64,000 nt of DNA from Escherichia coli (GTDB lineage Bacteria; Pseudomonadota; Gammaproteobacteria; Enterobacterales; Enterobacteriaceae). Under the pieces are notes generated by a model, which saw only the letters and a list, made by a program, of their open reading frames with translations, had not been told where the DNA came from and searched no databases. Positions 1 to 55,810 of this stretch are shown one piece after another (positions within the stretch are counted from its first letter, which is position 1; each line of letters opens with the position of its first letter). The stretch lies in assembly GCF_003991155.1 (NCBI RefSeq), contig NZ_CP031293.1, one strand, 5' to 3'. A program made the translations under genes and the position numbers.

Positions 1-118
1 TCTCTACCCTGCTTAATGCTGTTAGAGAAGCATTTAGACCCCTTATTTTTAATTACCTAAAGTATCCTCTATACATCTCTGTTATGAAACACCTCTGAAT
101 CCTTCATAAAACACATTA

Positions 119-178
119 TGACGCAAAGAACACTTTTCTAAGGTGATTCCCTTCCTGAACTCTGTTTCTTGCGTCAGA
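119..178. repeat. Imperfect inverted repeat (TGACGCAA...TTGCGTCA arms, about 30-bp spacer)
   Basis: Read directly: tgacgcaaagaacac at 119-133 and ctgtttcttgcgtca at 164-178; the outer 8 bp are perfectly complementary. Confidence 0.5.
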
Positions 179-180
179 GA

Positions 181-300
181 GCTACACAGAGAGCTTATAA
201 AGCTATTATTAATAATAAAGTAGATAAAGTAAGTAAGATAAGTAAGAAGATTAACTAAGATAGATAAGATTAATAAGATCAGAATTCTCTTTCGGTGTCG
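181..300. repeat. Purine-rich low-complexity tract of degenerate AAGATA/AAGTA units
   Basis: Read directly: aagtagataaagtaagtaagataagtaagaagattaactaagatagataagattaataagatc. Confidence 0.5.
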
Positions 301-323
301 CCTCTGGCTTTTCCACCGAAAAC

Positions 324-474
324 AATTACACGACTACAGAATGTAGGAAGTGAAATTGTATTGAGGCTTAGTGAAATTACACGAGGAAAGCAGAGTGTAA
401 TTGAGCTTTAGCCGCTCTCTCTTCGAGTAATTACACAACTACAGAGAATAACAGAGTTATTAAATGTAGGAGGG
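324..474. repeat. Direct repeats AATTACAC(G/A)ACTACAGA ... ATGTAGGA(A/G)G, with extra AATTACAC / GTGTAATT copies forming a short palindrome
   Basis: Copies at 324-350 and 428-474; inverted arms aattacac / gtgtaatt within 371-406. Confidence 0.5.
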
Positions 475-883
475 TAATTAAGAGTTAGAGAGAGTTAACA
501 CGTAAGCAATCAGATGATTGGTTAGGTGATTACTCTTACTGCGCACAGCGCAATAGTATTCCTTCGTGGGCGTTACCGCCAACGATAGTTACACGAAGAA
601 AGTAACGCTTTGCTTTCGGTGTGAGCGGAACGGGCCAGCCACAAAGCCCGAAAGGTAGCGGAGTAAGGCTGCTTGCCAGAGAGTGGAGCTAACGCCGGAA
701 GGCAAAAGATCATATATATAGTATAAAGAATATTATTTAATTATAGTATTGGTGGAACTCATTACCTAAGGTAAACCGGAGACCACTTCCAACGGTTAGG
801 CAACCACTTCCAATTGTGTTATTTCCCCTTTTACCCTAAGTAAATTTTAGCCTTTCGTTACATCCATTTATCACATAGCACTT

Positions 884-1018
884 ACCCTGTGTAAATCATA
901 GAATAATGCTCTCTATTCCCTGTGTAATTCCATACTAAAAAATTCAATGAAAAGTAGTTTAAAAGTGCAATGTTAGCTTTCTTCACTTTTACATCACTTT
1001 CGCTGCGCCTTGTGTAAT
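884..1018. repeat. Three direct copies of a CCYTGTGTAAW motif (iteron or operator-like)
   Basis: ccctgtgtaaat (884-895), ccctgtgtaatt (918-929), ccttgtgtaatg (1007-1018). Confidence 0.45.
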
Positions 1019-1312
1019 GCGGCTTACAGAGCACTATCAGAAATTATTGATCAAAAATCAACCTATTATTTGTCGAACAAGTTTTCTTTAATGCAACAAA
1101 AATTATTTTTTCAAAATAAACACACAATTTAATAGCTTGCTAATTTTACCAAAATGTAACTACATGATTCTCATGCAAGAAGTGTAGTGATAAGGCAGGC
1201 TAAATCACCACACTAAAAAACTTCGAATTTCGTAGTGAAAAAAGTACTTTACACACCTAATCAACACGCCCAATAATCACTACACACAAATCAATACAGA
1301 AGAAAAAAGAAG

Positions 1313-1864
1313 ATGGCTAATATTGGATACATTAGGGTATCGACTGTGCAACAAAACACAGACCGTCAATTAGCAGGAGTAACTCTTGATAAAGTCTTTG
1401 AAGATAAAGCGTCAGGCAAGAACACTCAGCGCCCACAGTTTGAGGCAATGATGAACTATGTGCGGGAGGGTGACGTGTTACACGTCCATAGTATTGATCG
1501 CCTTTGTCGTAATACAGCCGACCTTCTGGCAACTGTAGAGCAATTAACAAAGCGCGGCGTGTCTGTGCATTTCCATAAAGAAGACTTTAAGACAGGAAAG
1601 AACTCTCCCGCAGGGAATATGATGCTCACAGTTCTTGCAGCAGTGGCACAAATGGAACGTGAAATGATGCTTGAGCGTCAACGTGAAGGGATCGCCGCAG
1701 CCAAGGCCGCTGGACGTATAGCAAAACGTGGTAATGGAAAAGCAATTGATCGAGCGGGAATTGCTGCCGCTCTCGCGAATGGTGGCTCAATTCGGAGCGT
1801 AGCAAAAGATTTCAGTGTCAGCACGCAGACGGTGCAACGTATCAAGAAAGAGCAGGTGGCGTAA
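1313..1864 (+). CDS. Small serine recombinase (resolvase/invertase family)
   Basis: 183 aa. N-terminal IGYIRVSTVQQ motif with the catalytic Ser typical of serine recombinases; C-terminal helix-turn-helix (SIRSVAKDFSVSTQTVQRI). Confidence 0.8.
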   Translation: MANIGYIRVSTVQQNTDRQLAGVTLDKVFEDKASGKNTQRPQFEAMMNYVREGDVLHVHSIDRLCRNTADLLATVEQLTKRGVSVHFHKEDFKTGKNSPAGNMMLTVLAAVAQMEREMMLERQREGIAAAKAAGRIAKRGNGKAIDRAGIAAALANGGSIRSVAKDFSVSTQTVQRIKKEQVA

Positions 1865-2030
1865 TGCCTCCTTGATATTTGACAGGGACGGTCGGCAAAA
1901 ATCGGGGCTTGCTGATCTCAGCGTTGAGCGGTTCTTGCAATGGTGCCTAGGTGCTCGCTTGTATTCCCCTTCGATAATCACCACTAAGCCACTTATTGCC
2001 TTGTGGAGTGGCCCGAAAATTACTGATATC

Positions 2031-2495
2031 TTATTGATTCAGTCGATCCCATTTAACCGCAGATACAATTCCCCAATTACCACTAGCATTAGGCCTACGC
2101 CACTTCGCGGTTTCCATTCCACGAAGGTATTCGAGAGCTTCATTGAACGAACTGAAACGTTTCTGGGCTGATTTTTCCCCTACTCTAAACGAACCATCGC
2201 GAGTACTTGCCAATCCTGGATGAAAACACGACCCATCTGCAGCATAAGGAACAAGTACCTCCTGATCATCAGGTTTCCTTGAATCAGAAGCCAGTAACTG
2301 CCAAGGCTCAATACGCAAAGCGTCAGCCAGAACCTCAATTGCATCAAGAGATGCATTAGAGCAACCACGCTCAATTCGACTCATATAACTACGTGCAAAA
2401 CCACACCGATCTGCAAAGGCCTCTTGGCTTAAGCCAATAGCTATACGGAACTCTTTTACTCGTTGTCCAAAAAGGTATCTCAGATTCTTTCGCAT
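2031..2495 (-). CDS. XRE-family helix-turn-helix regulator with an uncharacterised C-terminal domain
   Basis: Start trimmed to MRKNLRY. HTH segment IGLSQEAFADRCGFARSYMSRIERG is Cro/CI-like; divergent from the downstream secreted-protein gene. Confidence 0.7.
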   Translation of the reverse strand: MRKNLRYLFGQRVKEFRIAIGLSQEAFADRCGFARSYMSRIERGCSNASLDAIEVLADALRIEPWQLLASDSRKPDDQEVLVPYAADGSCFHPGLASTRDGSFRVGEKSAQKRFSSFNEALEYLRGMETAKWRRPNASGNWGIVSAVKWDRLNQ

Positions 2496-2605
2496 GGCAC
2501 AAAGATGCAATTTGACGCACCAATTAACCACGCACTAATCGTGACATTTTGAATCAATCATGTATTATTAGCATCACCATCCATTTGACACACCAAGGGA
2601 GACAA

Positions 2606-2953
2606 ATGAAAAAACTAGTATTTGCCGCTTTGTTAATTCCAGTGATGGGCCACGCCACAACCTTTTCCTGTAAAGCAATACAGGAAGGTCATATTGACTC
2701 GGGAAGTCAGAAAGTTTCTGTAGATTCAACTTTTGATATACAAGATAAAAAAATGACCATAAATCTTGGCGGTAAAACTTGGAGACTTGATTTGGTAGGT
2801 CAAAAAAGCATCGCAAAGATGTATGCTACACCTGACGGAGGGGTTGCAGCCACATACATTGACAATGGCAGTATACCGATATTTGTATTACGCCCTTCTA
2901 ATCCCGATGGGGAGATGGCTGTTTACACATTGAGTATGTGTTCTGAAGTATGA
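2606..2953 (+). CDS. Small exported protein of unknown function
   Basis: Start trimmed to MKKLVFAALLIPVMGHA, a signal-peptide-like N-terminus. No recognisable domain. Confidence 0.5.
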   Translation: MKKLVFAALLIPVMGHATTFSCKAIQEGHIDSGSQKVSVDSTFDIQDKKMTINLGGKTWRLDLVGQKSIAKMYATPDGGVAATYIDNGSIPIFVLRPSNPDGEMAVYTLSMCSEV

Positions 2954-3030
2954 TTGATCGGCGTGATATTCACGCCGTTTTTGGGGAAATTTGTATATTG
3001 AAAAATATAGAAATAGAACTTTTATCAAGC

Positions 3031-3756
3031 CTATTTATTAACAGGTAGTAATGTCAGATCGCCATAATGGGCTTGTCTATGGCAATTAGGACATAATGCA
3101 ATAGCATTTTCCACAGAGTCCTCCCCCCCCTTTGAAAGCCACTCAATATGATGAACTTCTAGAAATGGAGTACCATCTTCCTTTAGAAAAGGAGCATCTC
3201 GCTTACAATATTGACATTTTCCATTTGCACTCAAAAGAACTTCAGCAACTACATATGGGCTTCGTTTATAAACTCGTGTTGTTACTTCGATTAGTTCCGG
3301 GATTTTACTTTCTGTCGCTAAAATTTGCTTTCGTTCCACTGAAGATAATTTTGCAGCCGTCTCAACAGCTTCTTCGAAAACCGATTTTACTTGACGATAA
3401 CGCCACATCCCTTCTAAATCCTGGTATAATTCCCAAATACCGTGCACAGATGGTTGATAGATTTCAAAAATATTTCCACGCTTGAACAATCGGTCATACT
3501 TATGATGCCGATGAGTTACATCATCAGTTCGTCGGGCAGTTTTGTTGAAACTCCAGTAGCTCCGCTTACAATTAACTGTATTAGCAATTAAATTGAGCCA
3601 AGTATTATCTTTATAAGATGGAAATAGCTTTCTAAGATAATCATCTACCTGCTTAGCCGTTGCAGCCCCACCAAACTGATTAGCAATTATCTGTATGGTA
3701 ATAGCTCTTATCGGTTGATCGCCATACTTGTATTTTTTGCCTAAATTTTTAACCAT
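3031..3756 (-). CDS. McrA-like HNH endonuclease; candidate modification-dependent (type IV) restriction nuclease
   Basis: C-terminal CQYC...LEVHHIEWLSKGGEDSVENAIALCPNCHRQAH is an HNH motif with paired Cys zinc ligands. N-terminal roughly 150 aa unassigned. Confidence 0.6.
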   Translation of the reverse strand: MVKNLGKKYKYGDQPIRAITIQIIANQFGGAATAKQVDDYLRKLFPSYKDNTWLNLIANTVNCKRSYWSFNKTARRTDDVTHRHHKYDRLFKRGNIFEIYQPSVHGIWELYQDLEGMWRYRQVKSVFEEAVETAAKLSSVERKQILATESKIPELIEVTTRVYKRSPYVVAEVLLSANGKCQYCKRDAPFLKEDGTPFLEVHHIEWLSKGGEDSVENAIALCPNCHRQAHYGDLTLLPVNK

Positions 3757-3884
3757 AGAAGACTCACTAAGCCTAAATTCATCTTAAGTTATTATTGTAA
3801 ATTAGTTGTGAAAATTTTTGATCTCAGACAATAAAAATCTACAAATTATTAGCTGGTTATACACTAAGAAGGATACACGAATAA

Positions 3885-5192
3885 CTAAGTCTCCCAACAA
3901 AGACCATCGATCACATAACAAACGGTGGAAAGTGGGAATGTGTGCAGATAACGCTGGGTAATCCCTACTCCACTCTTTTCATGACCTACCACCTGTTGCA
4001 GATGCGCCAAATTACTCACCCAACCAGCTAAACAAGTAGAAATCATAGTATGCCGGAAACTATGCACCAAGCGCCGCTGCCCATAATCATCAAGATAAGG
4101 AATATCAAGCTGATCACGAACATCTGAAAGAACTTTACCTATCTTTGACATATTTCGACCTGAGACTTCCGAAAAGATTTTCTCTTTCCATTGGCGGTTA
4201 ACAAAATCCAGAAACCCCCACTCAATCAGTTTGGGATGAATCACTACCTGTCTTGTAGCATTCTCAGTTTTACCCAGCCTTCTTTCCGCGATCAGAAGAT
4301 AGTGCCGCTGGCTATCTTCATCAAATTTGATCTGCGACTTCTCCAGTTTAGCAATCTCACCTCTTCTGGCTCCTGTGTACGCCAACAACAAAGTGATCCA
4401 CTTCTGCCATCCATCAGGCTGCTTTAGTGCCCATCCTACAAATTTTTTCATTTCTGCTGCACTGTATGCACCAAACCTAGCTTTGGATGGTGCCGCTACT
4501 ATTCCATCAGTCGGAGACTTAGATAGAATATCTTTGTTTTCAGTCAGAAATGTTTTGAATAACGATTTGTAGATTTTAAGGTGCTTATGTACAGCCTCAG
4601 CACCAACTAAATCCTCTGGCAGCACATCATCACATTCGATTAGTTGCTGAATAGTCATTGACCTATACGGTTGCACTACACGCTTTGGTAAGTTTTCGAC
4701 AGTTTCCATTACTCGCTTAATATCTTGTTTGGTGATTGCCGTTACGTCTGTTTCTTTTCCCAAGACAACAAGCAATACCTCCATATAACGCTCATTTGCC
4801 ATTGAGATCGATTTTGTCCAATTTCGACCTCTTTCCTCCTTGTACATAGCCCACGCATCAGCAAGTGTTAGCACCTTTTCCGGTTTGGCTGGTGGTTGAA
4901 GCTGCAAAACTTCTTTAGAAATATTGTTCAATTGCTGAGGGAGTGGCAACGGAATCATTACGTTACGTGACGAAGCGATCAAGTTTGAAACAAACTTATT
5001 AAATTGTGGCAACGGAGTAGCGAGTGATTTAACGAAAGGAATGTGCGGAGTAAGGCCAATCATCAACGCCGATGCTTCGCGATAACTGTCAGTAAAAAGT
5101 GATTTTTTGTATATCCGACCATCCGAAAGCCGGATTTGTAGATAGTAATTACCGTTTCGCTGAAATGTGTATGGGAGAGTTCTTGACCTCAT
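3885..5192 (-). CDS. Tyrosine recombinase / integrase
   Basis: C-terminal catalytic signature (ARRGE, HSFRHT, VGHEK, TQRYLH). Start chosen at the internal Met (MRSRTLPY) because the first Met lacks an upstream ribosome-binding site. Confidence 0.8.
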   Translation of the reverse strand: MRSRTLPYTFQRNGNYYLQIRLSDGRIYKKSLFTDSYREASALMIGLTPHIPFVKSLATPLPQFNKFVSNLIASSRNVMIPLPLPQQLNNISKEVLQLQPPAKPEKVLTLADAWAMYKEERGRNWTKSISMANERYMEVLLVVLGKETDVTAITKQDIKRVMETVENLPKRVVQPYRSMTIQQLIECDDVLPEDLVGAEAVHKHLKIYKSLFKTFLTENKDILSKSPTDGIVAAPSKARFGAYSAAEMKKFVGWALKQPDGWQKWITLLLAYTGARRGEIAKLEKSQIKFDEDSQRHYLLIAERRLGKTENATRQVVIHPKLIEWGFLDFVNRQWKEKIFSEVSGRNMSKIGKVLSDVRDQLDIPYLDDYGQRRLVHSFRHTMISTCLAGWVSNLAHLQQVVGHEKSGVGITQRYLHTFPLSTVCYVIDGLCWET

Positions 5193-5385
5193 AAACGCCC
5201 CCTTTTTGTACCTTAACAGCATGATTTATGGTCAAAAAGAGATACAACCACATAATTTTCAAGACTATTTTGGCCCCCTACGCTGGCATTATCCAGATCA
5301 GGTGATACGGGTATTTCTCAGCCTTCACGCAGAAGGGCACCCCGAGTCGTTTGGTTGCGATGATAAATCGCAAAGGAGGATGGTA

Positions 5386-5460
5386 ATGTCCAGCGCACGC
5401 GTTGTAAACGAGGAAAAACGGCAGTTTTACAATCGCGTTAATAAATTATTTGATATATGA
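5386..5460 (+). CDS. Candidate 24-aa small ORF with a strong ribosome-binding site
   Basis: AAGGAGG at 5373-5379, then ATG at 5386 ([24 protein letters not shown]). Its 3' end overlaps the 3' end of rcnR convergently. Speculative. Confidence 0.2.
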
Positions 5461-5718
5461 ATCCAGCACCTTCAGAACGACATCCAGATCTTCTTCACGT
5501 TTTAGCTCATCCCCCTGGTGAACGATGTGTTCCGTCAGATGACCTTTAATCACTTCCCGCATCAGACCGTTTACCGCGCCACGGATAGCAGCAATCTGTT
5601 GTAAAACTGCAGCGCATTCGTGCGGCTCGTCGAGCATTTTCTTGAGCGCCACGACCTGGCCCTGAATCTTACTGGCACGCGCTTTCAGTTTCTGTTTATC
5701 ACGGATGGTATGAGACAT
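5446..5718 (-). CDS. rcnR: Ni/Co-responsive transcriptional repressor RcnR (CsoR/FrmR family)
   Basis: 90 aa, recognised as RcnR; divergent from rcnA with the operator in between. Confidence 0.95.
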
Positions 5719-5766
5719 GGCAACACCTGGTTAACAAGAATATGAAAAATCATAGCACTATTAATC

Positions 5767-5801
5767 TACTGGGGGGTAGTATCAGGTACTGGGGGGGAGT
5801 A
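5767..5801. promoter_or_regulatory. RcnR operator: two TACT-G6/7-N-AGTA sites in the rcnR-rcnA intergenic region
   Basis: tactggggggtagta (5767-5781) and tactgggggggagta (5787-5801), matching the known G-tract operator architecture. Confidence 0.75.
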
Positions 5802-5838
5802 GAATCAGATTGCCGAATTAATACTAAGAATTATTATC

Positions 5839-6648
<810 letters not shown>

Positions 6649-6866
6649 CTCAATCCTTTAGGCTTGCATGTTATCTTCAGCCCAGGATGATTCTTAAATC
6701 AGCTATTTCCGCTGACTCTCTGCTCGCTAAGGATGCTTTTAGGGCATCCTTTCATTTACACTTTTTACGAAATCATGGGATCACTAACAAAATATCGCTT
6801 GTCAGTTATATTGTATGGCAGGAAAGATATGCGACTGATATTACAGATCCCCAAAGTGGAGAGTTT

Positions 6867-7205
6867 ATGACCATTAAAAATAAGATGTTGCTGGGTGCGC
6901 TTTTGCTGGTTACCAGTGCCGCCTGGGCCGCACCAGCCACCGCGGGTTCGACCAATACCTCGGGAATTTCTAAGTATGAGTTAAGCAGTTTCATTGCTGA
7001 CTTTAAGCATTTCAAACCAGGTGACACCGTACCAGAAATGTACCGTACCGATGAGTACAACATTAAGCAGTGGCAGTTACGTAACCTGCCCGCGCCTGAT
7101 GCCGGGACGCACTGGACCTATATGGGTGGCGCGTACGTGTTGATCAGCGACACCGACGGTAAAATCATTAAAGCCTACGACGGTGAGATTTTTTATCATC
7201 GCTAA
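6867..7205 (+). CDS. rcnB: Periplasmic Ni/Co homeostasis protein RcnB
   Basis: Start trimmed to MTIKNKMLLGALLLVTSAAWA (signal peptide), 112 aa; the longer ORF-track start is an upstream extension. Confidence 0.9.
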   Translation: MTIKNKMLLGALLLVTSAAWAAPATAGSTNTSGISKYELSSFIADFKHFKPGDTVPEMYRTDEYNIKQWQLRNLPAPDAGTHWTYMGGAYVLISDTDGKIIKAYDGEIFYHR

Positions 7206-7210
7206 AAAAA

Positions 7211-7231
7211 GCCCCCTCGGAGAGAGGGGGA
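7211..7231. terminator. GC hairpin between convergent rcnB and yehA
   Basis: ccccctc / gaggggg stem with ggaga loop; the A-run at 7204-7210 is a U-run for the minus-strand yehA transcript. Confidence 0.6.
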
Positions 7232-7286
7232 AATGCAAACACCTTGTTATTTTTTATTATTAGCCACTTGCTCGTCTTGCTTATTA

Positions 7287-8321
7287 TTAGTCGTATTTCA
7301 CATTGATTAATGCGGTTGCCTCCAGTGCGCCAGATTTAACTTTGTTTGTATCGTAAACGTAGTAACTGGCCGTTATCGGAATTGAAACCGTTGTATCTGT
7401 AAGTTTTGACTTTGCCGCAATTTCTTTTAAATTTGTATATCCTTTACTGCTGTTAGTGATATTTAAAAGTGTGACTGGCGTACCATTACTTTCAAGAATA
7501 AATCCTACGCCATTATCTTCCGCACCTTTCAGGATCGTGTTGCTGTTGGTTAACAAGTCAGAACTTGATAAATACACCTGCATTTTCCGTGATGTTTGAT
7601 TTTGTTGACCTAATAAGTTTTTACAACGCAGAACAATATCCCCTTTGTTACTATTTATTGTTGCTTTGTTACCTGTAGCTGGTAATTGTGAAACGGGAAT
7701 ACTCTCTAACGTAATTAATAAATCGTCCGGTTTGCAGGTTGTGGTTATCGGGTTGTATGACAATGTCAGATTAAAGGAATAGACACCTGCATTTTGTGCC
7801 AATGCATTTCTGTAGCTATTTACACATGCATCCCATGACTTGCCACCGAATAAACACAGTAAAAATTGTACTGCAGCACTCCCGCGTGTCGATGATGAAG
7901 CACTGGATAATGTCGCAACACCATTAATCATCACTGAACCGCCGCCCCCCGCAGAAACATTCACTTTTGCATTACTGGCCGCAGGTGTCACCGTTACCGA
8001 ATAACCACTGGTGAAACTGGTCTGAGTATTTGACAACGTGATGTTGTTTTTATTGGTCCATTCAAAATGTAAATTTAATTTAATGGTATCGTTATAAAGT
8101 CCAACAATAATATCCGACGGGCTCATAGGGGTGATAGTATTTGTACTCACGCATGACGAATCATTAAAATTATGCTCATATGTCGCCATTTGTGTTTGAG
8201 TAAGTGCAAAATCCCCCTGAACAACCAAATTGTGCTGAACAGATAACTCACTATAACATGCTGCATAGCTCACAGGCATAACCATCATTATTAATATAAA
8301 TAGCATTATGCGAATTTCCAT
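7287..8321 (-). CDS. yehA: Fimbrial adhesin-like protein YehA
   Basis: 344 aa, signal peptide; last gene of the yehDCBA operon. Confidence 0.9.
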   Translation of the reverse strand: MEIRIMLFILIMMVMPVSYAACYSELSVQHNLVVQGDFALTQTQMATYEHNFNDSSCVSTNTITPMSPSDIIVGLYNDTIKLNLHFEWTNKNNITLSNTQTSFTSGYSVTVTPAASNAKVNVSAGGGGSVMINGVATLSSASSSTRGSAAVQFLLCLFGGKSWDACVNSYRNALAQNAGVYSFNLTLSYNPITTTCKPDDLLITLESIPVSQLPATGNKATINSNKGDIVLRCKNLLGQQNQTSRKMQVYLSSSDLLTNSNTILKGAEDNGVGFILESNGTPVTLLNITNSSKGYTNLKEIAAKSKLTDTTVSIPITASYYVYDTNKVKSGALEATALINVKYD

Positions 8322-8336
8322 AGAACCACCTGACTA

Positions 8337-10817
8337 TTACTGGCAAATATAATTTTTACTTTCATCAATCTCTTTACCGAAGGTGATTGTGCATGAAAGC
8401 CCTTGTTGCTTATCAATTGCCACATTAACCGATGGCGGTACTTCATTGGTGCGAATAAATAACTGGCTTCCCTGGCCGACAACACCAATATTATGACCAT
8501 GGATATCATTGACTTCATAACCAAACGTTAATGGTTGCCCATCCGCTCTTAATGCTTTTATAAACCATGGCTTGCGCTGATCGGTATCAAAATTAACCAG
8601 TACAACCGCGCCGCGATAAGGGGCGGCAATTTTCCGGTTGCCACGTAATTCTGCTTCGCTATCGCTTTGTGACACATCCAACATCAGGTAATTTTCCCGA
8701 TAAGGTGTCATTCCGTCGTATACCACCACTCCATTACGGTTTGTTGTGCGATATTTTTGCCCATTGACATAAGCATCTTTAATTCCTGGCGCATTCATCA
8801 CAGCAAACGTTTCAGAAAGACGGTTTGCCAGATTAACGCCACCCGACCAGGCGACAATGCCCCCTGAAACACTGGCTCCAGCCTGTCGATAAGCACTCGA
8901 CTGACTATAACTGCCATTCACTGTCGCAACCGGCGCGTTCCAGGTTAAATTCGCCCCAGCTGTCGTTTCATTTCCCTGATACTGATAACTCAGGTTGACC
9001 CCATAGTTAAACTGATCCCGGCTTCCAACGGTTCCTGATAATCCCGTATTATTTGAGGCAACCCCCTGATCATCAAACGTCGTTGAGTTAGACATATATA
9101 TTTGCCGACGAGGCGTCGTAACGTCATCACCCCAATCAAAGGGAATCGATATAAAAATATTAAAACGTTTCTCTTCATGATGATTCTCGTCATAAGCCTG
9201 GCTTGCCGCGAGGGTATAGCTTATCCGTCGCAGGTTGTTGGAATAACTCAACTGATAATCCTTACTACTGCCGCTACGCCCCCAGTAATCTCGCCATAAC
9301 GTACTTAATGACACAGAACCCCAGCCTTCTGGCAATGACTGGCTCATATTAGCAGAAAAGCTATTTTTACGGCCAAAATCGTTCTGGTAATAATCGGCAA
9401 TGTCATAGATATCGTTTTCATCACGGCGATAATTATCTTTATTGTTTGCCCAAACGTGATCGTTAAATGTCCGGTAATCACGCGACGAATAACGCCAGGC
9501 TGCCAGACCAAAACGCGTCGACGTTTGGCTCACAAATTTGTTGTAGGCAATTTGATAACTTTGCCCGTCAAACACATCGCCGTTGTCTTGTTTACTATGC
9601 GACTTCGTGGCATCGACGGAAATGGCACCAATGCGTGTATTCCAGCCAGTCCCCAAAGTGAACGCGTAATAATTATTCGCGACCATCGATCCGCCATACA
9701 GCGTCAATAAGTTATTAAAACCATACTGATAACCCGCCTGAACAAAATCACTTTGTTTGCTCGCCCCTTCAATATGGCTACGACCTGCCGCAAAATCATA
9801 TTTCGACACGCCGGGTTGCAGCATATTCGGCACTGCTGCATAAGGCACCAGATAGGTGGTTACCGAACCGTCCGCCTCTTTCACGCTGACATCAAGATCT
9901 GCTCCACCACCGGCCAACTGCAAATCTGTAATCGCAAACGGGCCAGGAGGAACCTCTTTCTGATAAACCACAAAACCGTTCTGTTCAATAGTTACCAGCG
10001 CGTTACTCTGAGCAATCCCCTGCACCCGTGGCGTAAAATTCTGTTTCGAGTTAGGCAACATCTGCATATCACGAAACAACCGCACACCGCTGAAGCGAAC
10101 AGAATCAAAAATATCGCTTGATGTGTACATATCACCCACGCGAAGCGTGCCGAGAAGTTGGGCAAATCCACGTTCCAGATACAGGGTATTGCTTTTCCAC
10201 ACCCCTGGATTGCTATTTGTTTTACTGAAACTGGCATCAGAATGCAGTTGCCACCCCAGTAAGTTTAACCCGCTGTTAAAACGTACATATGTACTCTTGC
10301 TATTACCCGACGCTTTATAGTCGCTGTAATACTGACTCACATAATAAGAGGTATAAAACGCATTAATACCCCGCTCCCAGTTTTCCGGTGGAACATAGCC
10401 ACTTTCCAGTTCTTCCACCCACGCCTGCGGGACACTGAAATCGAGACGAAAAACTCCGATATCCCAGGTATAGCTCCCACCCTGAACAAGTTGCTCAAAT
10501 GTTAAACATTGCTTACCGCTGGCAAAGTTATCGGTATTAATGCCTAACCGCTTGATAATTTCCCTTGATAAACATGTTTCTTGCGGGTTGTCTTTAACAA
10601 TAATCTCATATTTCCCGCGCCATTGCTTATTGACATAAATATCGATGTCATACTGCCCCGGCAAGGGTTGATTATCATCAAGACGAATATTTGCAACCTG
10701 CTGGTCTTTCATTCCACCTATCATAAAATGGGTATCAAAGGTTTCTTCAGCTGCATAAGCTTCAATGCCGAGCAATAACGCTACGATTGCTGATGCAAGT
10801 GGGGTCATTCTCAACAT
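8337..10817 (-). CDS. yehB: Outer-membrane fimbrial usher YehB
   Basis: Start trimmed to MLRMTPLASAIVALLLGIEAYA, 826 aa; usher-family size and composition. Confidence 0.9.
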   Translation of the reverse strand: MLRMTPLASAIVALLLGIEAYAAEETFDTHFMIGGMKDQQVANIRLDDNQPLPGQYDIDIYVNKQWRGKYEIIVKDNPQETCLSREIIKRLGINTDNFASGKQCLTFEQLVQGGSYTWDIGVFRLDFSVPQAWVEELESGYVPPENWERGINAFYTSYYVSQYYSDYKASGNSKSTYVRFNSGLNLLGWQLHSDASFSKTNSNPGVWKSNTLYLERGFAQLLGTLRVGDMYTSSDIFDSVRFSGVRLFRDMQMLPNSKQNFTPRVQGIAQSNALVTIEQNGFVVYQKEVPPGPFAITDLQLAGGGADLDVSVKEADGSVTTYLVPYAAVPNMLQPGVSKYDFAAGRSHIEGASKQSDFVQAGYQYGFNNLLTLYGGSMVANNYYAFTLGTGWNTRIGAISVDATKSHSKQDNGDVFDGQSYQIAYNKFVSQTSTRFGLAAWRYSSRDYRTFNDHVWANNKDNYRRDENDIYDIADYYQNDFGRKNSFSANMSQSLPEGWGSVSLSTLWRDYWGRSGSSKDYQLSYSNNLRRISYTLAASQAYDENHHEEKRFNIFISIPFDWGDDVTTPRRQIYMSNSTTFDDQGVASNNTGLSGTVGSRDQFNYGVNLSYQYQGNETTAGANLTWNAPVATVNGSYSQSSAYRQAGASVSGGIVAWSGGVNLANRLSETFAVMNAPGIKDAYVNGQKYRTTNRNGVVVYDGMTPYRENYLMLDVSQSDSEAELRGNRKIAAPYRGAVVLVNFDTDQRKPWFIKALRADGQPLTFGYEVNDIHGHNIGVVGQGSQLFIRTNEVPPSVNVAIDKQQGLSCTITFGKEIDESKNYICQ

Positions 10818-10832
10818 AGGCAGCTCCTGCAA

Positions 10833-11507
10833 TTAAATTTTGTCACTAATATAGTTGCCATGGTCATCGATAATGGTCAGATGCCAGTTATTCGCATTAT
10901 TACTTTTGACATTAATACTCTGACTTTCTAAGGGGGCAATCATAATAGTTTCATAATTGACTTTGACATTATTAGCTTTGACATCCGAAATCGTCACCCA
11001 ATTTGCTGAGTCATTTTTTATCACCAATCCATTGCCACTGCGATTTACCCGTAACTTTTTAAATGTCGCTTTATTTACCGGTGCAATACCCGCAGGCCGG
11101 TAAAACAATTTGATTCTGTTTTGCATTGCAAATTTCAGTGCATTCTTGCCCTCTTGCTCTGGACTATTTGGTGGAATATCCAGAACATTCAGATAAAAAA
11201 TGCTCTCTTTATTAGTGGGCAGTTTATTCGGCATAATTTTGATTTTTACTTGCTGCCCGGAATTTGCCCCTATTTTTGCCACTGGTGGCGTTAACATGAA
11301 AGGAACCTGAATTTTTTCTGGTGGTAACGACGTATCACCATCATCAATCCACGCCTGCAGCAGCGAAGAACGGTTTCCCTGATTCATCAACTGCACCATC
11401 ACTTCTTTATTTTCTGCCGGGTAAATAATACGCGTCCCGTAGATAACAATACCGGCATGTGCAGGAAGGACCATAGAAGAAATGAGTAAAGCAAATAATC
11501 CTTTCAT
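10833..11507 (-). CDS. yehC: Periplasmic fimbrial chaperone YehC
   Basis: 224 aa with signal peptide; PapD-like chaperone between major subunit and usher genes. Confidence 0.9.
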   Translation of the reverse strand: MKGLFALLISSMVLPAHAGIVIYGTRIIYPAENKEVMVQLMNQGNRSSLLQAWIDDGDTSLPPEKIQVPFMLTPPVAKIGANSGQQVKIKIMPNKLPTNKESIFYLNVLDIPPNSPEQEGKNALKFAMQNRIKLFYRPAGIAPVNKATFKKLRVNRSGNGLVIKNDSANWVTISDVKANNVKVNYETIMIAPLESQSINVKSNNANNWHLTIIDDHGNYISDKI

Positions 11508-11520
11508 CTTAATGCCTCTT

Positions 11521-11551
11521 AAATTAAAAGGCCGCCATGGGGATAGCGGCC
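11521..11551 (-). terminator. Intra-operon hairpin between yehD and yehC (attenuator)
   Basis: ggccgc / gcggcc stem at 11530-11551 followed on the minus strand by a T-rich run. Confidence 0.45.
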
Positions 11552-11587
11552 ATGTTTATTACCTGGAGAAACTTGAAATTTTATTTA

Positions 11588-12130
11588 TTAATCCTGCGCC
11601 ACACGCATAACCAGAGAAGATAACACATCACCTGATTGCACTGAATTATCTGTCAGCTTCAGGTATTTTGCTTTAAACGGAATAGCATATTGACCTTCCG
11701 CTGTTTTATAACTCTCAATGTTAAAAGGTGCAGAAACATCCAGGACATCGCTGTTATCACCTAAATAGAGATAGTACCCCACGGTATCGTTGCTACTGGC
11801 TATCGCCTTATCGTTTCCGGTTATTTTATCGTTGGTAATCAACGAGAGTTTTACACCAGCAACTTCTTTCGGACAGCTAATTTTTAACATGCTGCTGGTT
11901 ACACCGACTGCATCATCATAGGTCGAGTATTTAGCTTTACCTTCAAAGACAGTGGTTGGTACAGTTGGCATATTAATACTTACTGAATCGCCACCCGCTT
12001 CGAATTTACACGGAGATTCTGCAATATTCCCTTTAATGGTTAATGTTCCGGTATCAACGTCTGCGGCAAATACCCCAGCGCTCATAAAAAAAGAAGAAAA
12101 GACAGCGGCAGCAATAATTGAACGTTTCAT
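11588..12130 (-). CDS. yehD: Major fimbrial subunit YehD
   Basis: 180 aa, signal peptide; first gene of the operon, downstream of an AT-rich region. Confidence 0.9.
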   Translation of the reverse strand: MKRSIIAAAVFSSFFMSAGVFAADVDTGTLTIKGNIAESPCKFEAGGDSVSINMPTVPTTVFEGKAKYSTYDDAVGVTSSMLKISCPKEVAGVKLSLITNDKITGNDKAIASSNDTVGYYLYLGDNSDVLDVSAPFNIESYKTAEGQYAIPFKAKYLKLTDNSVQSGDVLSSLVMRVAQD

Positions 12131-12350
12131 AATATGTTCCTTAATAAAATTTATTTTTTGGTTGTTAAGAGTCTGTATCTCTTAGAAACAAATTTCTCAC
12201 ATCAAAAAAGTTGCCGCAATGTAAACATATTGTTTTATTGATTTAAAGCAAATTAACTATTGCAATATAAATACAACAAATACTTAAGCATATTAAATAT
12301 TTATCACATCTATTAATTAATGCAGATTTTTGTAAATGGTATTATTTATA

Positions 12351-12387
12351 TCAATAAAAAAGCTAAAATCATTCACACGAATGATTT
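12351..12387 (-). terminator. Rho-independent terminator downstream of yehE
   Basis: Perfect 9-bp stem aaatcattc / gaatgattt with a 4-nt loop, followed on the minus strand by a T-run. Confidence 0.55.
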
Positions 12388-12425
12388 CAGCTTTCTAAAT
12401 CCGATTAAAAAACCAGGGTGGCAAA

Positions 12426-12707
12426 TTAATCGTAGCGATTTAACACGATTCGACGTTTGCTATCGCTACCTGCAACAACCACTTCTGTCGTTACACCTTT
12501 GACTGGCGAAGAAACCTGATGACGGGTATCAACATCATACGTTAACTGACCACAATGCTGTTGAGGTTGTCCATTAACCATAGCCATACTGCATGTTGGG
12601 GGACTGATCCTGCCATTAATCGTTAATGTGGCAGTCTGTGAAGAGAACGCGGGAGAAGCCATTCCATAGGCAAGAAAAATAATTCCTGACAGCCAGTACT
12701 TATTCAT
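12426..12707 (-). CDS. yehE: Small exported protein YehE
   Basis: 93 aa with signal peptide. Confidence 0.85.
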   Translation of the reverse strand: MNKYWLSGIIFLAYGMASPAFSSQTATLTINGRISPPTCSMAMVNGQPQQHCGQLTYDVDTRHQVSSPVKGVTTEVVVAGSDSKRRIVLNRYD

Positions 12708-12969
12708 TGAACGTTATCCCTGTAGTAAAGGTTATGCCTGGATAGAATGAGTGCATAACAAACTATAGCTGTACATCCACTACACAGCCACGAAGGATGA
12801 TAATGAAGCATTGCCTGTACGATCAATCGACTTTATAGAGTTTCGGACGAAGGTCCGCAGAATATTTGCAGCATTAAATAAGTGTTCATTAATGCGGCAA
12901 AAACAAATACACCGCATCAATGTAACATCTCTGCGGTGTATGAAAAGCAACCAAAAAGGTTTATACGCG

Positions 12970-28015: not shown

Positions 28016-28453
28016 CTTTATTAAAGAGGGAGACGGTATTCCCCCTTAGATGCGTTTCAATTTGCCCGTTACTTCAACAAATCAATCAACCGTAACAGAG
28101 CCACTAATAACTCCAGTACGGCAATGAGCACAGTTAACTTTTGTGTCAGCGTGTCCATCCGCTCTCCTTATTAAGGAGCGCAACACCAGCACCTTACCCT
28201 TACACTGCCTGTCGATACTGGTTTACGTATGTTGGACCACGATGTTGCACTCCGGATCAGGGCACTACCTGCGGCACCACCCGTCCGGTAGCCATGACTT
28301 GAAATGGGTTCGATCCGGCGCAACGTCCCAACAGTCAGGATTATAAATCTCATTATCTTAATTGCAACGGGGTCCACCGATGGTTATAATTCGTTCGTTG
28401 GAACACGATGTTGCACAGGCTGCGGCGTTGGGCCTGAAAATAGTAAATAAAAG

Positions 28454-28481
28454 AACCTGCCTCACCAGCAGGTTTTTTTAT
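28454..28481 (+). terminator. Rho-independent terminator in the yehK-yehL intergenic region
   Basis: aacctgc / gcaggtt stem, ctcacca loop, then tttttta. Confidence 0.55.
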
Positions 28482-48908: not shown

Positions 48909-49081
48909 GATGAGCATTCAGATAGTGGTTCACGCGCACGGGTTGCGCACCGCCGGAGTAAGGATTTACTGAGGCTAGCGACGCCATCATAACGAGCAAA
49001 AAGTGCGATCGTCAAAGAAGAATCGTGAGGAAATGCTGCATTGCTGACATTTACGCCAGCAATGCAGCGCAAAAGAACTTT

Positions 49082-54560: not shown

Positions 54561-55810
<1,250 letters not shown>

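Follow-up and report, generated by a model that had tools for sequence, protein, structure and literature searches.

A 7.7-kb genomic island of Escherichia coli next to thiM, with the TPP riboswitch aptamer as its probable attachment site

Beside rcnR in Escherichia coli lies a block of DNA that we take, with a probability of about 0.75, to be the integrase-proximal two-thirds of a 7.7-kb site-specific island with the thiM TPP riboswitch aptamer as its attachment site. A duplication of that aptamer flanks the island, the unoccupied site is found in most E. coli, and the integrase family is tied to the TPP riboswitch across genera. We envision that the integrase would recombine a riboswitch-like sequence on a circular form of the island with the chromosomal riboswitch. 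After integration, thiMD would take its promoter and the aptamer's 5' half from the left end of the island and so remain riboswitch-controlled, and the native thiM promoter with its own 5' half-aptamer would be left directed into int. The backbone is made up of the integrase, an XRE regulator, a small protein with a leader, a serine recombinase and a replication module; this copy carries as cargo an HNH nuclease, of the McrA type in its catalytic domain, which most likely restricts phages with modified DNA. We found no paper on the thiM riboswitch as an island attachment site.

Positions refer to the window, the whole 64,000-nucleotide stretch of DNA that was analysed. Its first 5460 positions hold the right-hand 5.4 kb of the island. 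The remaining ~2.4 kb extends to the left beyond position 1 and was read in an identical locus (L001), so that the left part is taken from identical genomes and not from the window's own. The features are as follows.

1-1312, no strand: non-coding control and replication region, the right-hand 1.3 kb of 1.76 kb, with no convincing ORF
218-279, no strand: low-complexity tandem array of the AAGT/AAGATAAGT type (Tandem Repeats Finder, periods 4, 9, 13 and 26)
535-745, plus strand (tentative): conserved hairpin-rich element (comparison of island types)
782-813, plus strand: two exact 11-nt direct repeats ACCACTTCCAA, spaced 21 nt, candidate iterons (repeat search)
1182-1285, no strand: inverted repeat GTGTAGTGAT / ATCACTACAC, candidate recombinase-binding (res-like) site, by position only
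1313-1864, plus strand: small serine recombinase of the resolvase/invertase family, 183 aa (phrog_125 'DNA invertase', 2e-61)
2031-2495, minus strand: XRE-family helix-turn-helix regulator, 154 aa (phrog_8, 5e-14)
2606-2953, plus strand: leader-bearing backbone protein, 115 aa (phrog_35183, 5e-26)
3031-3756, minus strand: HNH endonuclease, 241 aa, in a variable cargo slot (Pfam HNH, 1.2e-12; 6ghc match)
3885-5192, minus strand: tyrosine integrase, 435 aa (phrog_1, 1e-26; PF00589)
5193-5275, minus strand: integrase leader and island arm beside the attachment site (repeat D16)
5259-5354, minus strand: TPP riboswitch aptamer copy, the 3' strand of its P1 being island sequence (RF00059, 61.3 bits)
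5276-5357, no strand: 82-nt direct repeat, the integrase-proximal attachment-site copy (exact repeat D1; empty K-12 site)
5358-5445, minus strand: native rcnR-thiM intergenic DNA, outside the island (same as K-12 upstream of the repeat)

A sequence-only reading of the same DNA had proposed an integrative island at 1-5460, foreign to the conserved rcnR neighbourhood, and had suggested a comparison with genomes lacking the island and a search for direct repeats between 5193-5445 and DNA to the left of the window. Such a repeat exists. An exact 82-nt sequence at 5276-5357 recurs 7732 bp to the left, where it adjoins thiM outside the window (L001). The repeated sequence, which that reading had not recognised, is the TPP aptamer of the thiM riboswitch (Rfam RF00059): against a gathering score of 54.3, the copy beside thiM reaches 71.2 bits and the int-side copy 61.3 bits. 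In most E. coli genomes the TPP aptamer is single-copy. K-12 has no island here: rcnR directly adjoins thiM with its riboswitch, there is one repeat copy, and in a three-way alignment the empty site reads as the flank on the int side, a single repeat and the flank on the thiM side. Among the 5426 complete E. coli genomes there are only 78 carriers, counted as genomes with at least 80% of the block, and 98.6% are without it; the integrase family is found in 221. The proposed extent held for the positions of the genes but not for the edges: the left edge lies ~2.4 kb further out and the right edge at about 5357, beyond which 5358-5445 is native DNA. This native stretch carries the displaced thiM promoter region, with a promoter-like site (TTTACA-17-TACCAT, 5408-5380), now directed into the aptamer copy and int.

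At every locus matching our search pattern, the two aptamer copies share a 46-nt stretch (CTGAGAAATACCCGTAyyACCTGATCTGGATAATGCCAGCGTAGGG), the exceptions being 1-3 substitutions in three integrase-side copies; substitutions in some int-side copies affect a loop (L009) or P2 (L016). We infer that the crossover falls within the 46-nt stretch. One locus, L008, has a thiM-side copy with a non-E. coli 5' half, which places the crossover 3' of helix P3, and the CTGG-ATAATG-CCAG stem-loop is a plausible crossover point. Directly 5' of the thiM-side aptamer, a block of ~45 nt is nearly invariant among 14 island left ends. The candidate left-end promoter for thiMD, TTGCAt-17-TAAGCT, is a poor sigma-70 match and falls below the scan threshold.

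The tyrosine integrase gene described beside rcnR is indeed there, in an ORF that extends to 5222. Alignment A1 shows no variation at its catalytic positions (RRGE, HSFRH, and a conserved H and Y), and PF00589 is present on all of its relatives, which occur at 69-83% identity in many Enterobacterales. In about ten Enterobacterales genera these relatives sit behind a TPP aptamer at a fixed distance, which points to a family of islands with the riboswitch as attachment site. The aptamer scores above threshold 68-165 nt upstream of int at seven loci from other genera and on one metagenome contig; at a further locus, L009, the upstream copy scores below it. A second aptamer copy adjoins thiM wherever the locus reaches far enough, and tandem arrays are also found.

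This use of a riboswitch as an integrase attachment site parallels the use of tRNA genes by other islands. The tRNA and tmRNA islands and satellites with P4-type tyrosine integrases (Williams 2002, as cited in PMC10121019) are alike in their conserved structured-RNA target, in carrying their own partial copy of the target, which keeps it functional, in the direct repeats at their ends, in having int beside one junction and in tandem accretion. They differ in that our island targets a cis-regulatory riboswitch of a 5' UTR rather than an RNA gene, that it replaces the promoter-proximal 5' part and the promoter rather than the 3' part, and that the displaced host fragment is a promoter facing int.

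Between the integrase gene and the non-coding DNA, the island encodes a nuclease and three backbone proteins. The nuclease had been called McrA-like, which is right for the HNH catalytic domain: residues 141-232 match EcoKMcrA (6ghc) at 8.5e-23, PADLOC assigns mREase_IV at 1.9e-23, and the best Foldseek matches are EcoKMcrA, ScoMcrA and TagI. The name does not extend to the N-terminal 140 residues, in which Pfam and Foldseek find no sequence or fold match to the 5mC/5hmC reader domain of McrA; Pfam gives only a weak Forkhead hint there, and the model of residues 57-87 is unreliable. EcoKMcrA, also borne on an integrative element (e14), is homologous over ~90 residues of the HNH domain, and its 6ghc chain has 287 residues against 241 aa here. 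Going by the HNH domain and PADLOC, from which both modification dependence and target specificity are deduced, the nuclease is most likely a type IV, modification-dependent restriction enzyme directed against phages with modified DNA. The slot beside int has interchangeable defence cargo, which in sister islands is Hachiman (HamAB), PD-Lambda-2 with SIR2, GmrSD or an AbiU-like gene. A second slot, at the left end, holds EcoBLMcrX in a sister island.

The regulator and the recombinase were found as the sequence-only reading had named them. The XRE regulator matches a PADLOC 'control protein' (6e-17, over the N-terminal 70 residues only), is 99% identical in two other islands (L006 and L007) and is divergent from the gene at 2606-2953. 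The 115-aa product of the latter, found in islands of several genera at 39-89% identity, had been described as a small exported protein; the gene is in place, and its product has an N-terminal hydrophobic leader, MKKLVFAALLIPVMGHA, read by eye from the sequence. The serine recombinase matches the Tn3 and gamma-delta resolvases (3e-27) and Gin (1.6e-24) over its full length, in keeping with the layout of small serine recombinases (an N-terminal catalytic domain and a C-terminal HTH in about 180-190 aa), and is probably a multimer resolvase. No excisionase was identified in the island.

The 1.3 kb at 1-1312 was likewise correctly described as ORF-free and repeat-rich. It continues for 451 nt to the left of the window (19549-21312 in L001), and Rfam has no match in 1-1312. 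The region is kept at 90-100% in 714 of the 5426 E. coli genomes, where it is never annotated, and its equivalent in related islands is 78-83% conserved. This 'ORF-free' DNA belongs to a replication module, which the sequence-only reading had not recognised, with a Rep-like protein, iterons and a resolvase. The parts of the module include a strong promoter, small proteins, an RHH protein, a winged-helix Rep-like protein, whose assignment is weak (PHROG 4e-7; Pfam only HTH_36), and the iterons. Iterons change together with the Rep type across islands: with a different Rep type, the same position holds three copies of CATTGCCGGGGTAG (L008 and L011) or two of CCCCCTCCGGT (L010). The hairpin-rich element, with motifs GCGCACAGCGC, GAGCGGAACGGG (at 623) and CTTGCCAGAGAGT, is the sole non-coding part that can be recognised from one divergent island type to another; both strands of one enclosing helix differ between types (CGGTGT/ACGCCG versus GTTCC/GGGAC), and the RNAalifold consensus is weak (-9.7 kcal/mol). 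A promoter-like TTTACA-18-AATAAT lies just upstream of the serine recombinase gene, at 1248-1277.

Islands of this family have been met before under other names. The EcoBLMcrX island of E. coli B (PMC5487053) occupies the same thiM-adjacent site and shares the backbone, with its Rep-like protein and small proteins; its left-end protein ECD_02033 (WP_001318412.1) is 94% identical to the 79-aa left-end protein of our island. BL21 keeps a remnant without int, whose restriction gene is of the BisI family and sits in the left-end slot, unlike the HNH gene in the int-side slot here, and strain MRE162 carries a complete version with int. The E. coli B island is a decayed member of the riboswitch island family; PMC5487053 makes no mention of an integrase, attachment repeats or a riboswitch. 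The supplement of PMC10121019 lists an island 'rcnR-thiM' (7956 bp, RM_type_IV, MGE type 'None'); the catalogue assigns it to no family and names neither a mechanism nor an attachment site. The P4-like satellite hotspots and 'integrase-only' defence islands of that study are also small int elements that have a fixed slot for defence systems that vary between strains, but the riboswitch island family is without the marker genes of P4 and PICI elements.

These marker genes bear on the possibility that the island is a phage satellite, silenced by its XRE regulator and induced by a helper, which would excise, replicate from the Rep/iteron origin and be packaged in helper capsids, carrying the defence gene along in the way of P4-like elements and PICIs. 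We regard this as possible but on balance unlikely. It would suit a small island with int, a repressor and a replication module. Moreover, the small proteins, Rep-like protein, non-coding DNA and recombinase are shared at 90-97% identity with ~12-kb tRNA-Thr islands that encode a major-head-protein homologue and tail-like proteins, and the genomes of virulent Justusliebigvirus phages contain segments with 97-100% identity to the genes for the Rep-like and RHH proteins, which shows recent recombination in shared cells. However, E. coli phages yield no close relative of the head protein from the tRNA-Thr islands, and PHROGs and NCBIfam find no capsid-redirecting, terminase, AlpA or primase genes among ten island proteins, the only candidates being the XRE regulator and a weak Rep-like winged HTH. 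We identified no cos or pac site. Against the main reading as well as the satellite, neither an excised circle nor an attP junction was found in IMG/VR; two metagenome contigs carry the junction without terminal overlap, and tandem arrays could explain both.

We consider it very unlikely that the island is an integrative mobilizable element or an integrated small plasmid, which after excision would replicate as a plasmid and be transferred by conjugation from an oriT in the non-coding region. A resolvase beside a replication module is typical of plasmids, hairpins abound in the non-coding region, and p60, the non-coding DNA and the recombinase do occur together on an IncF plasmid; that copy, though, is flanked by IS elements and resembles a captured island, PHROGs and NCBIfam find no relaxase or mobilisation protein, and no known oriT motif was seen on reading the sequence. 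Equally improbable is a fixed, immobile remnant, distributed by vertical descent and by homologous recombination of the thiM-rcnR region between strains, even though the family has fixed remnants lacking int in O157:H7 and E. coli B and many of the 78 carriers have identical flanking alleles. Against it, the integrase is intact and under conservation, the direct repeats are exact, and the same island is found with different thiM, thiD, rcnA and yegV alleles, in at least two chromosomal backgrounds. At the thiM site there are also islands that differ in cargo and whose integrases are 74-83% identical, and in other genera tandem arrays occupy it. The 82-nt repeats, the island-free genomes and the multiple backgrounds bear out the original idea of an integrative island whose genes fit defence or a satellite.

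For a site-specific island at the thiM riboswitch, we also considered, as a quite unlikely extension, that the attachment site of the circular island is a complete regulatory leader for int that combines an island promoter and a full TPP aptamer with a long closing helix. The integrase leader has GGTACA-type repeats (~5198-5212) and a stretch, TGGTTGTATCTCT, complementary to the far left end of the island; the int-side aptamer could gain a substitute closing helix only by pairing with the island left end or, in part, with the host 5' end. The closing helix would join the island left end and the int leader, and its strands co-vary in three island types. Integration would split this structure, one half rebuilding the thiM riboswitch and the other staying with int behind the thiM promoter. 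In phage lambda, sib is an RNA structure affecting int that is assembled from both sides of attP in the circle and split by integration. The likeness would be one of analogy only, as the complementary stretches here flank the 5' leader of int and not its 3' end. If this model is true, the element could distinguish its 'integrated' from its 'excised' state by RNA structure, much as with sib in lambda, and integrase synthesis may be coupled to the thiamine status of the cell.

The window opens inside a 7.7-kb integrative element that is inserted in the TPP riboswitch of thiM and whose right-hand 5.4 kb fall at positions 1-5460. The ORF listing bears out the gene list of the sequence-only reading, with labels that agree with family searches:

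1-1312, no strand: 1.3-kb stretch without a convincing ORF
1313-1864, plus strand: serine recombinase, 183 aa (phrog_125 DNA invertase)
2031-2495, minus strand: XRE-type regulator (family searches)
2606-2953, plus strand: 115-aa protein with a hydrophobic N-terminal leader
3031-3756, minus strand: HNH protein (PADLOC type IV restriction match)
3885-5192, minus strand: tyrosine integrase, int (phrog_1 integrase)
5446-5718, minus strand: rcnR, then rcnA

Most of the block has a G+C content of 35-45%, and rcnR-rcnA one of 47-53%. Elsewhere in the window, Rfam families without relation to the island mark an OrzO-P antitoxin RNA (28404-28479), a Peptidase-S11 RNA motif (48913-48993) and the isrC sRNA (54629-54751). 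To read the island beyond the window we fetched L001, the identical locus of strain 2016C-3878, with 20 kb of flank. There the island extends 2.4 kb further left, ends beside thiM and encodes five more proteins:

left of window, minus strand: 60-aa protein
left of window, minus strand: unannotated ribbon-helix-helix (RHH) protein, 62 aa
left of window, minus strand: winged-helix, Rep-like protein of 239 aa that weakly resembles replication initiators and DnaD/O-like loaders (PHROG 4e-7; Pfam HTH_36)
left of window, minus strand: 81-aa protein
left of window, plus strand: 79-aa 'HTH-like' protein

The NCBI pipeline annotation of L001 holds two TPP riboswitches, one beside thiM and one between int and rcnR. 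The sequence-only reading had taken the block for an integrative island and proposed comparing it with island-free genomes and seeking direct repeats between its right end and sequence left of the window. That interpretation holds on both counts. At least 80% of the block is present in only 78 of 5426 complete E. coli genomes (megablast), and repeat finding returned an exact 82-nt direct repeat whose copies lie 7732 bp apart, at L001 17544-17625 and 25276-25357, the latter being window 5276-5357. In a three-way alignment, the empty site of K-12 equals a single repeat joined to the left flank of the int side and the right flank of the thiM side. The repeat starts with CAACCAAACG, at about the start of the thiM leader, and ends with CGTAGGG, just 5' of the P1 3' strand. 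Both copies score above the RF00059 gathering score of 54.3 bits in Infernal (71.2 bits thiM-side, 61.3 bits int-side). The aptamer is single in most genomes, with 5700 places in 5424 genomes and thus extra copies in a few hundred. An apparent extra 2.46 kb inside the island in many genomes was rejected: the match had been joined to the second repeat copy, and the layout is identical.

The link between integrase and riboswitch extends well beyond this strain. In 221 E. coli genomes there is an integrase with a DNA identity of 74% or more, and every carrier inspected has it between thiM and rcnR, accompanied by two annotated riboswitches. A protein search returned 538 relatives (78-83% identity for the 120 listed) from Cronobacter, Enterobacter, Citrobacter, Klebsiella, Kluyvera, Serratia and other genera. 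Scanning one genome per species gave 14 loci, 11 of them with a near-complete integrase; in 8 of these 11 an above-threshold TPP aptamer lies 68-165 nt upstream of int, and wherever the locus extends far enough a second copy follows 5-11 kb downstream, beside thiM. At L009 the int-side copy is recognisable but under threshold, and no aptamer was found at L017 and L020, whose integrases are 69-72% identical. Four loci from other genera (L010, L011, L015 and L019) carry the left end of another island directly upstream of the int-side aptamer, an arrangement that indicates tandem arrays of putative riboswitch-targeting islands.

Where would recombination take place within the repeat? Both copies share CTGAGAAATACCCGTAyyACCTGATCTGGATAATGCCAGCGTAGGG in every locus matching the search pattern, save that the int-side copies of L009, L012 and L016 carry 1-3 substitutions; at L030, an island with a different cargo, the int-side repeat is one base shorter and ends CGTAGG. 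The thiM-side copy of a further island, L008, has a 5' half that is not that of E. coli, differing in both its P1 flank and its P3 helix. Judged from this junction, the crossover must lie 3' of P3, inside the common 46 nt. The stem-loop CTGG-ATAATG-CCAG would be a plausible crossover core, by analogy with tRNA loops, and (G/A)GGTACA repeats at both ends of the island look like candidate integrase arm sites. We considered the P3 difference of L008 as proof of compensatory evolution within the island and rejected this, the same P3 variant being native to Lelliottia hosts. The P3 loop of the thiM-side aptamer reads TT in strain 789 (L028) and GC in L001, which carry the same island type, and the pattern is reversed between the two copies of L030. 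With both alleles present in E. coli hosts, the pattern suggests that repeat copies sometimes exchange sequence or that the crossover point varies.

The island ends are complementary to each other. Sequence just 5' of the thiM-side aptamer can pair with the stretch of int leader that adjoins the int-side aptamer on its 3' side: AGAGAT-T-CAACCA with TGGTTG-T-ATCTCT in L001, AGAAATGTAACCA with TGGTTACATTTCT in L030, which differs from L001 by two double changes and one repaired mismatch, and a different complementary pair of about 17 bp in the L008 group. In each of the three types the cognate duplex is the stronger, at -20.6, -24.5 and about -28 kcal/mol, with non-cognate ones at -15 to -22 kcal/mol; Z-scores versus shuffled leaders are -2 to -4. 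These ends could form an RNA structure that exists only in the circular island. When the circular form was reconstructed, the minimum-energy fold of the L008 and L009 types was a canonical aptamer enclosed by a long helix; in that of L001 the closing helix did not form. Just as well, the same ends may be protein-binding sites arranged as an inverted pair within the attP arms, and such sites would co-vary likewise. The int-side substitutions in L009 and L016 speak against a strictly conserved sensor. Given this alternative and the substituted int-side copies, we do not take the RNA reading as the main explanation. A TTTTT run after the int-leader strand was tried as a terminator tail and set aside, as folding pairs it with an A-run of the left end.

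Insertion also rearranges the control of thiMD. The minus strand encodes thiM, int and rcnR alike. Along thiM transcription, rcnR is followed by the native rcnR-thiM intergenic DNA, the int-side aptamer, an 83-nt island leader and int, and then by the rest of the island, its left end, the thiM-side aptamer, the native expression platform, thiM and thiD. With its upstream DNA displaced by the island, thiMD must, as deduced from this geometry, be transcribed from the island. Immediately 5' of the thiM-side aptamer lies a 45-nt block, CTTGC-N4-GCAAGC-ACTTCCCCTAAGCTGGCA-AAAAGTA, that is almost invariant across 14 island left ends of many genera, in otherwise divergent surroundings; it holds a weak sigma-70-like pair, TTGCAw-17-TAAkCT, that is below the threshold of the promoter scan. 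The native thiM upstream region, with a promoter-like site TTTACA-17-TACCAT at window 5408-5380, now points at the int-side aptamer copy and int. In O157:H7 strain SS52 (L024 9200-11161), a 2.2-kb remnant of the family lies between thiM and rcnR; it lacks int and has one riboswitch copy and an island-type left end, and therefore island-derived DNA presumably drives thiMD there.

The backbone of the island suggests a replication module. In the non-coding region, a near-consensus promoter (TTGACA-17-TG-AATAAT) is directed into the minus-strand operon, and a second predicted promoter into the recombinase gene. Two exact 11-nt repeats lie at window 782 and 803, at 21-nt spacing, and islands with other Rep types have different repeats at the equivalent place. 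Such repeats, changing together with the Rep type, would show the behaviour expected of origin iterons and are candidates for that role. At window ~535-745 there is a conserved hairpin-rich element with the motifs GAGCGGNACGGG and CTTGCCNGAGAGT; one helix is altered on both of its sides between island types, and RNAalifold gives a weak consensus fold. No Rfam family was found in the non-coding region, this element included (E<=1), and none of the genomes examined has an annotated feature there. Copies of the region (window 1-1312; L001 19549-21312) that are 90-100% identical are present in 714 of 5426 complete E. coli genomes and occupy several chromosomal sites. Gamma-delta resolvase, Tn3 resolvase and Gin all align with the recombinase from end to end, and an inverted repeat (GTGTAGTGAT/ATCACTACAC) lies directly upstream of the recombinase gene; we infer that the enzyme is probably a multimer resolvase. 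An invertase of the non-coding segment was considered and dropped, as no opposite-strand segment occurs among the genomes listed. The long inverted repeat I1 is at about chance level by our own estimate.

The defence content proposed from the sequence is likewise supported, both by the McrA-type match of the HNH nuclease and by other defence genes in the same slot of sister islands. Over residues 141-232 the HNH protein resembles EcoKMcrA (6ghc; 8.5e-23) and, less strongly, ScoMcrA; the best folds for its model (mean pLDDT 72) are EcoKMcrA, ScoMcrA and TagI, through the HNH part. The N-terminal 140 residues have no reliable match. The cargo between int and the leader-bearing protein, and that of a second slot at the left end, varies:

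int-side slot, L006: GmrSD-domain protein
int-side slot, L007 (12647-13597) and L029 (10234-11184): 316-aa protein WP_001007828.1
int-side slot, L008: HNH homologue and IS1-flanked AbiU-like AIPR fragment
int-side slot, L030: Hachiman HamA/HamB (1e-119 and 2e-295)
int-side slot, L031: PD-Lambda-2 and SIR2 protein
second slot, left end, L008, L025 and L031: EcoBLMcrX (PADLOC mREase_II, 8e-101)

WP_001007828.1 has no PADLOC match and sits in a defence slot, and is thus a candidate new defence gene.

How does the island spread between cells? It is found in identical form with different thiM, thiD, rcnA and yegV alleles, so it has entered at least two backgrounds. PHROGs and NCBIfam searches detected no relaxase, terminase, capsid-redirecting, AlpA or primase gene among its proteins. 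No attP junction was found in IMG/VR; two metagenome contigs carry the junction without terminal overlap, and so could be tandem arrays. The module of small proteins, non-coding region and recombinase is present in 714 of 5426 genomes; its occurrences include ~12-kb islands at tRNA-Thr with genes for a major-head-protein homologue and for tail-like proteins. In virulent Justusliebigvirus phages (~150 kb), stretches of DNA match the Rep-like and RHH genes (L001 18500-19343) at 97-100% identity, which implies recent recombination between lytic phage and island. Protein gp184 of phage inny (L004 2640-3743) has two tandem winged-helix domains, one of them almost identical to residues 30-118 of the island protein. 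Together, the module shared with the tRNA-Thr islands and the DNA shared with Justusliebigvirus point to phages. Gp101 of phage Bas60/PaulScherrer (L005 2968-3153) is also among the island-like Justusliebigvirus stretches.

The tRNA-Thr islands lie beside proA (L026 and L027, about 500-12800) and encode a phrog_29 head homologue, a 609-aa tape-measure-like protein and a tail-fibre/baseplate-like protein. They may be an undescribed family of capsid-encoding satellites; no close phage relative of their head protein was found, only matches of ~25% identity in Pseudomonas phages. The IncF plasmid pEND_Eco19019-1 (NZ_CP126938; L003 6000-9780) carries p60, the non-coding region and the recombinase at 91-96% identity, broken by IS3 and adjoining other hypothetical genes; this looks like a captured island.

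Members of the family have been recorded before. Fomenkov and colleagues (PMC5487053) sited an E. coli B island with EcoBLMcrX 'adjacent to thiM', mentioning neither integrase nor riboswitch. Its ECD_02033 (WP_001318412.1) shares 94% protein identity with the 79-aa left-end protein of our island; BL21(DE3) carries an int-less remnant of the family. Hochhauser et al. (PMC10121019) include the island analysed here in their supplement as 'rcnR-thiM', strain 789, 7956 bp; its entry gives RM_type_IV, and 'None' as the type of mobile element. We found no paper on a riboswitch as an attachment site in an incomplete literature search, so that novelty is not proven, and nothing relevant on thiM or Justusliebigvirus together with satellites, again with incomplete coverage. 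The existence of the family was partly catalogued. What appears to be undescribed is the attachment site, together with the boundaries, the family relationships and the replication module.

Islands that had no mobile-element type in a published defence catalogue thereby gain a mechanism, boundaries and a family, in which the classical E. coli B restriction system EcoBLMcrX (rglA/r6) now has its place. With its ~46-nt conserved attachment core, found in most Enterobacterales, the integrase could double as an integration tool. New defence genes, such as that of the 316-aa protein of L007 and L029, can be sought in the int-side slot, which is compact and well bounded. Finally, a riboswitch aptamer joins the short list of structured-RNA sequences that serve as chromosomal attachment sites, and what the element has to replace here is not a tRNA tail but a promoter together with half of a ligand sensor.
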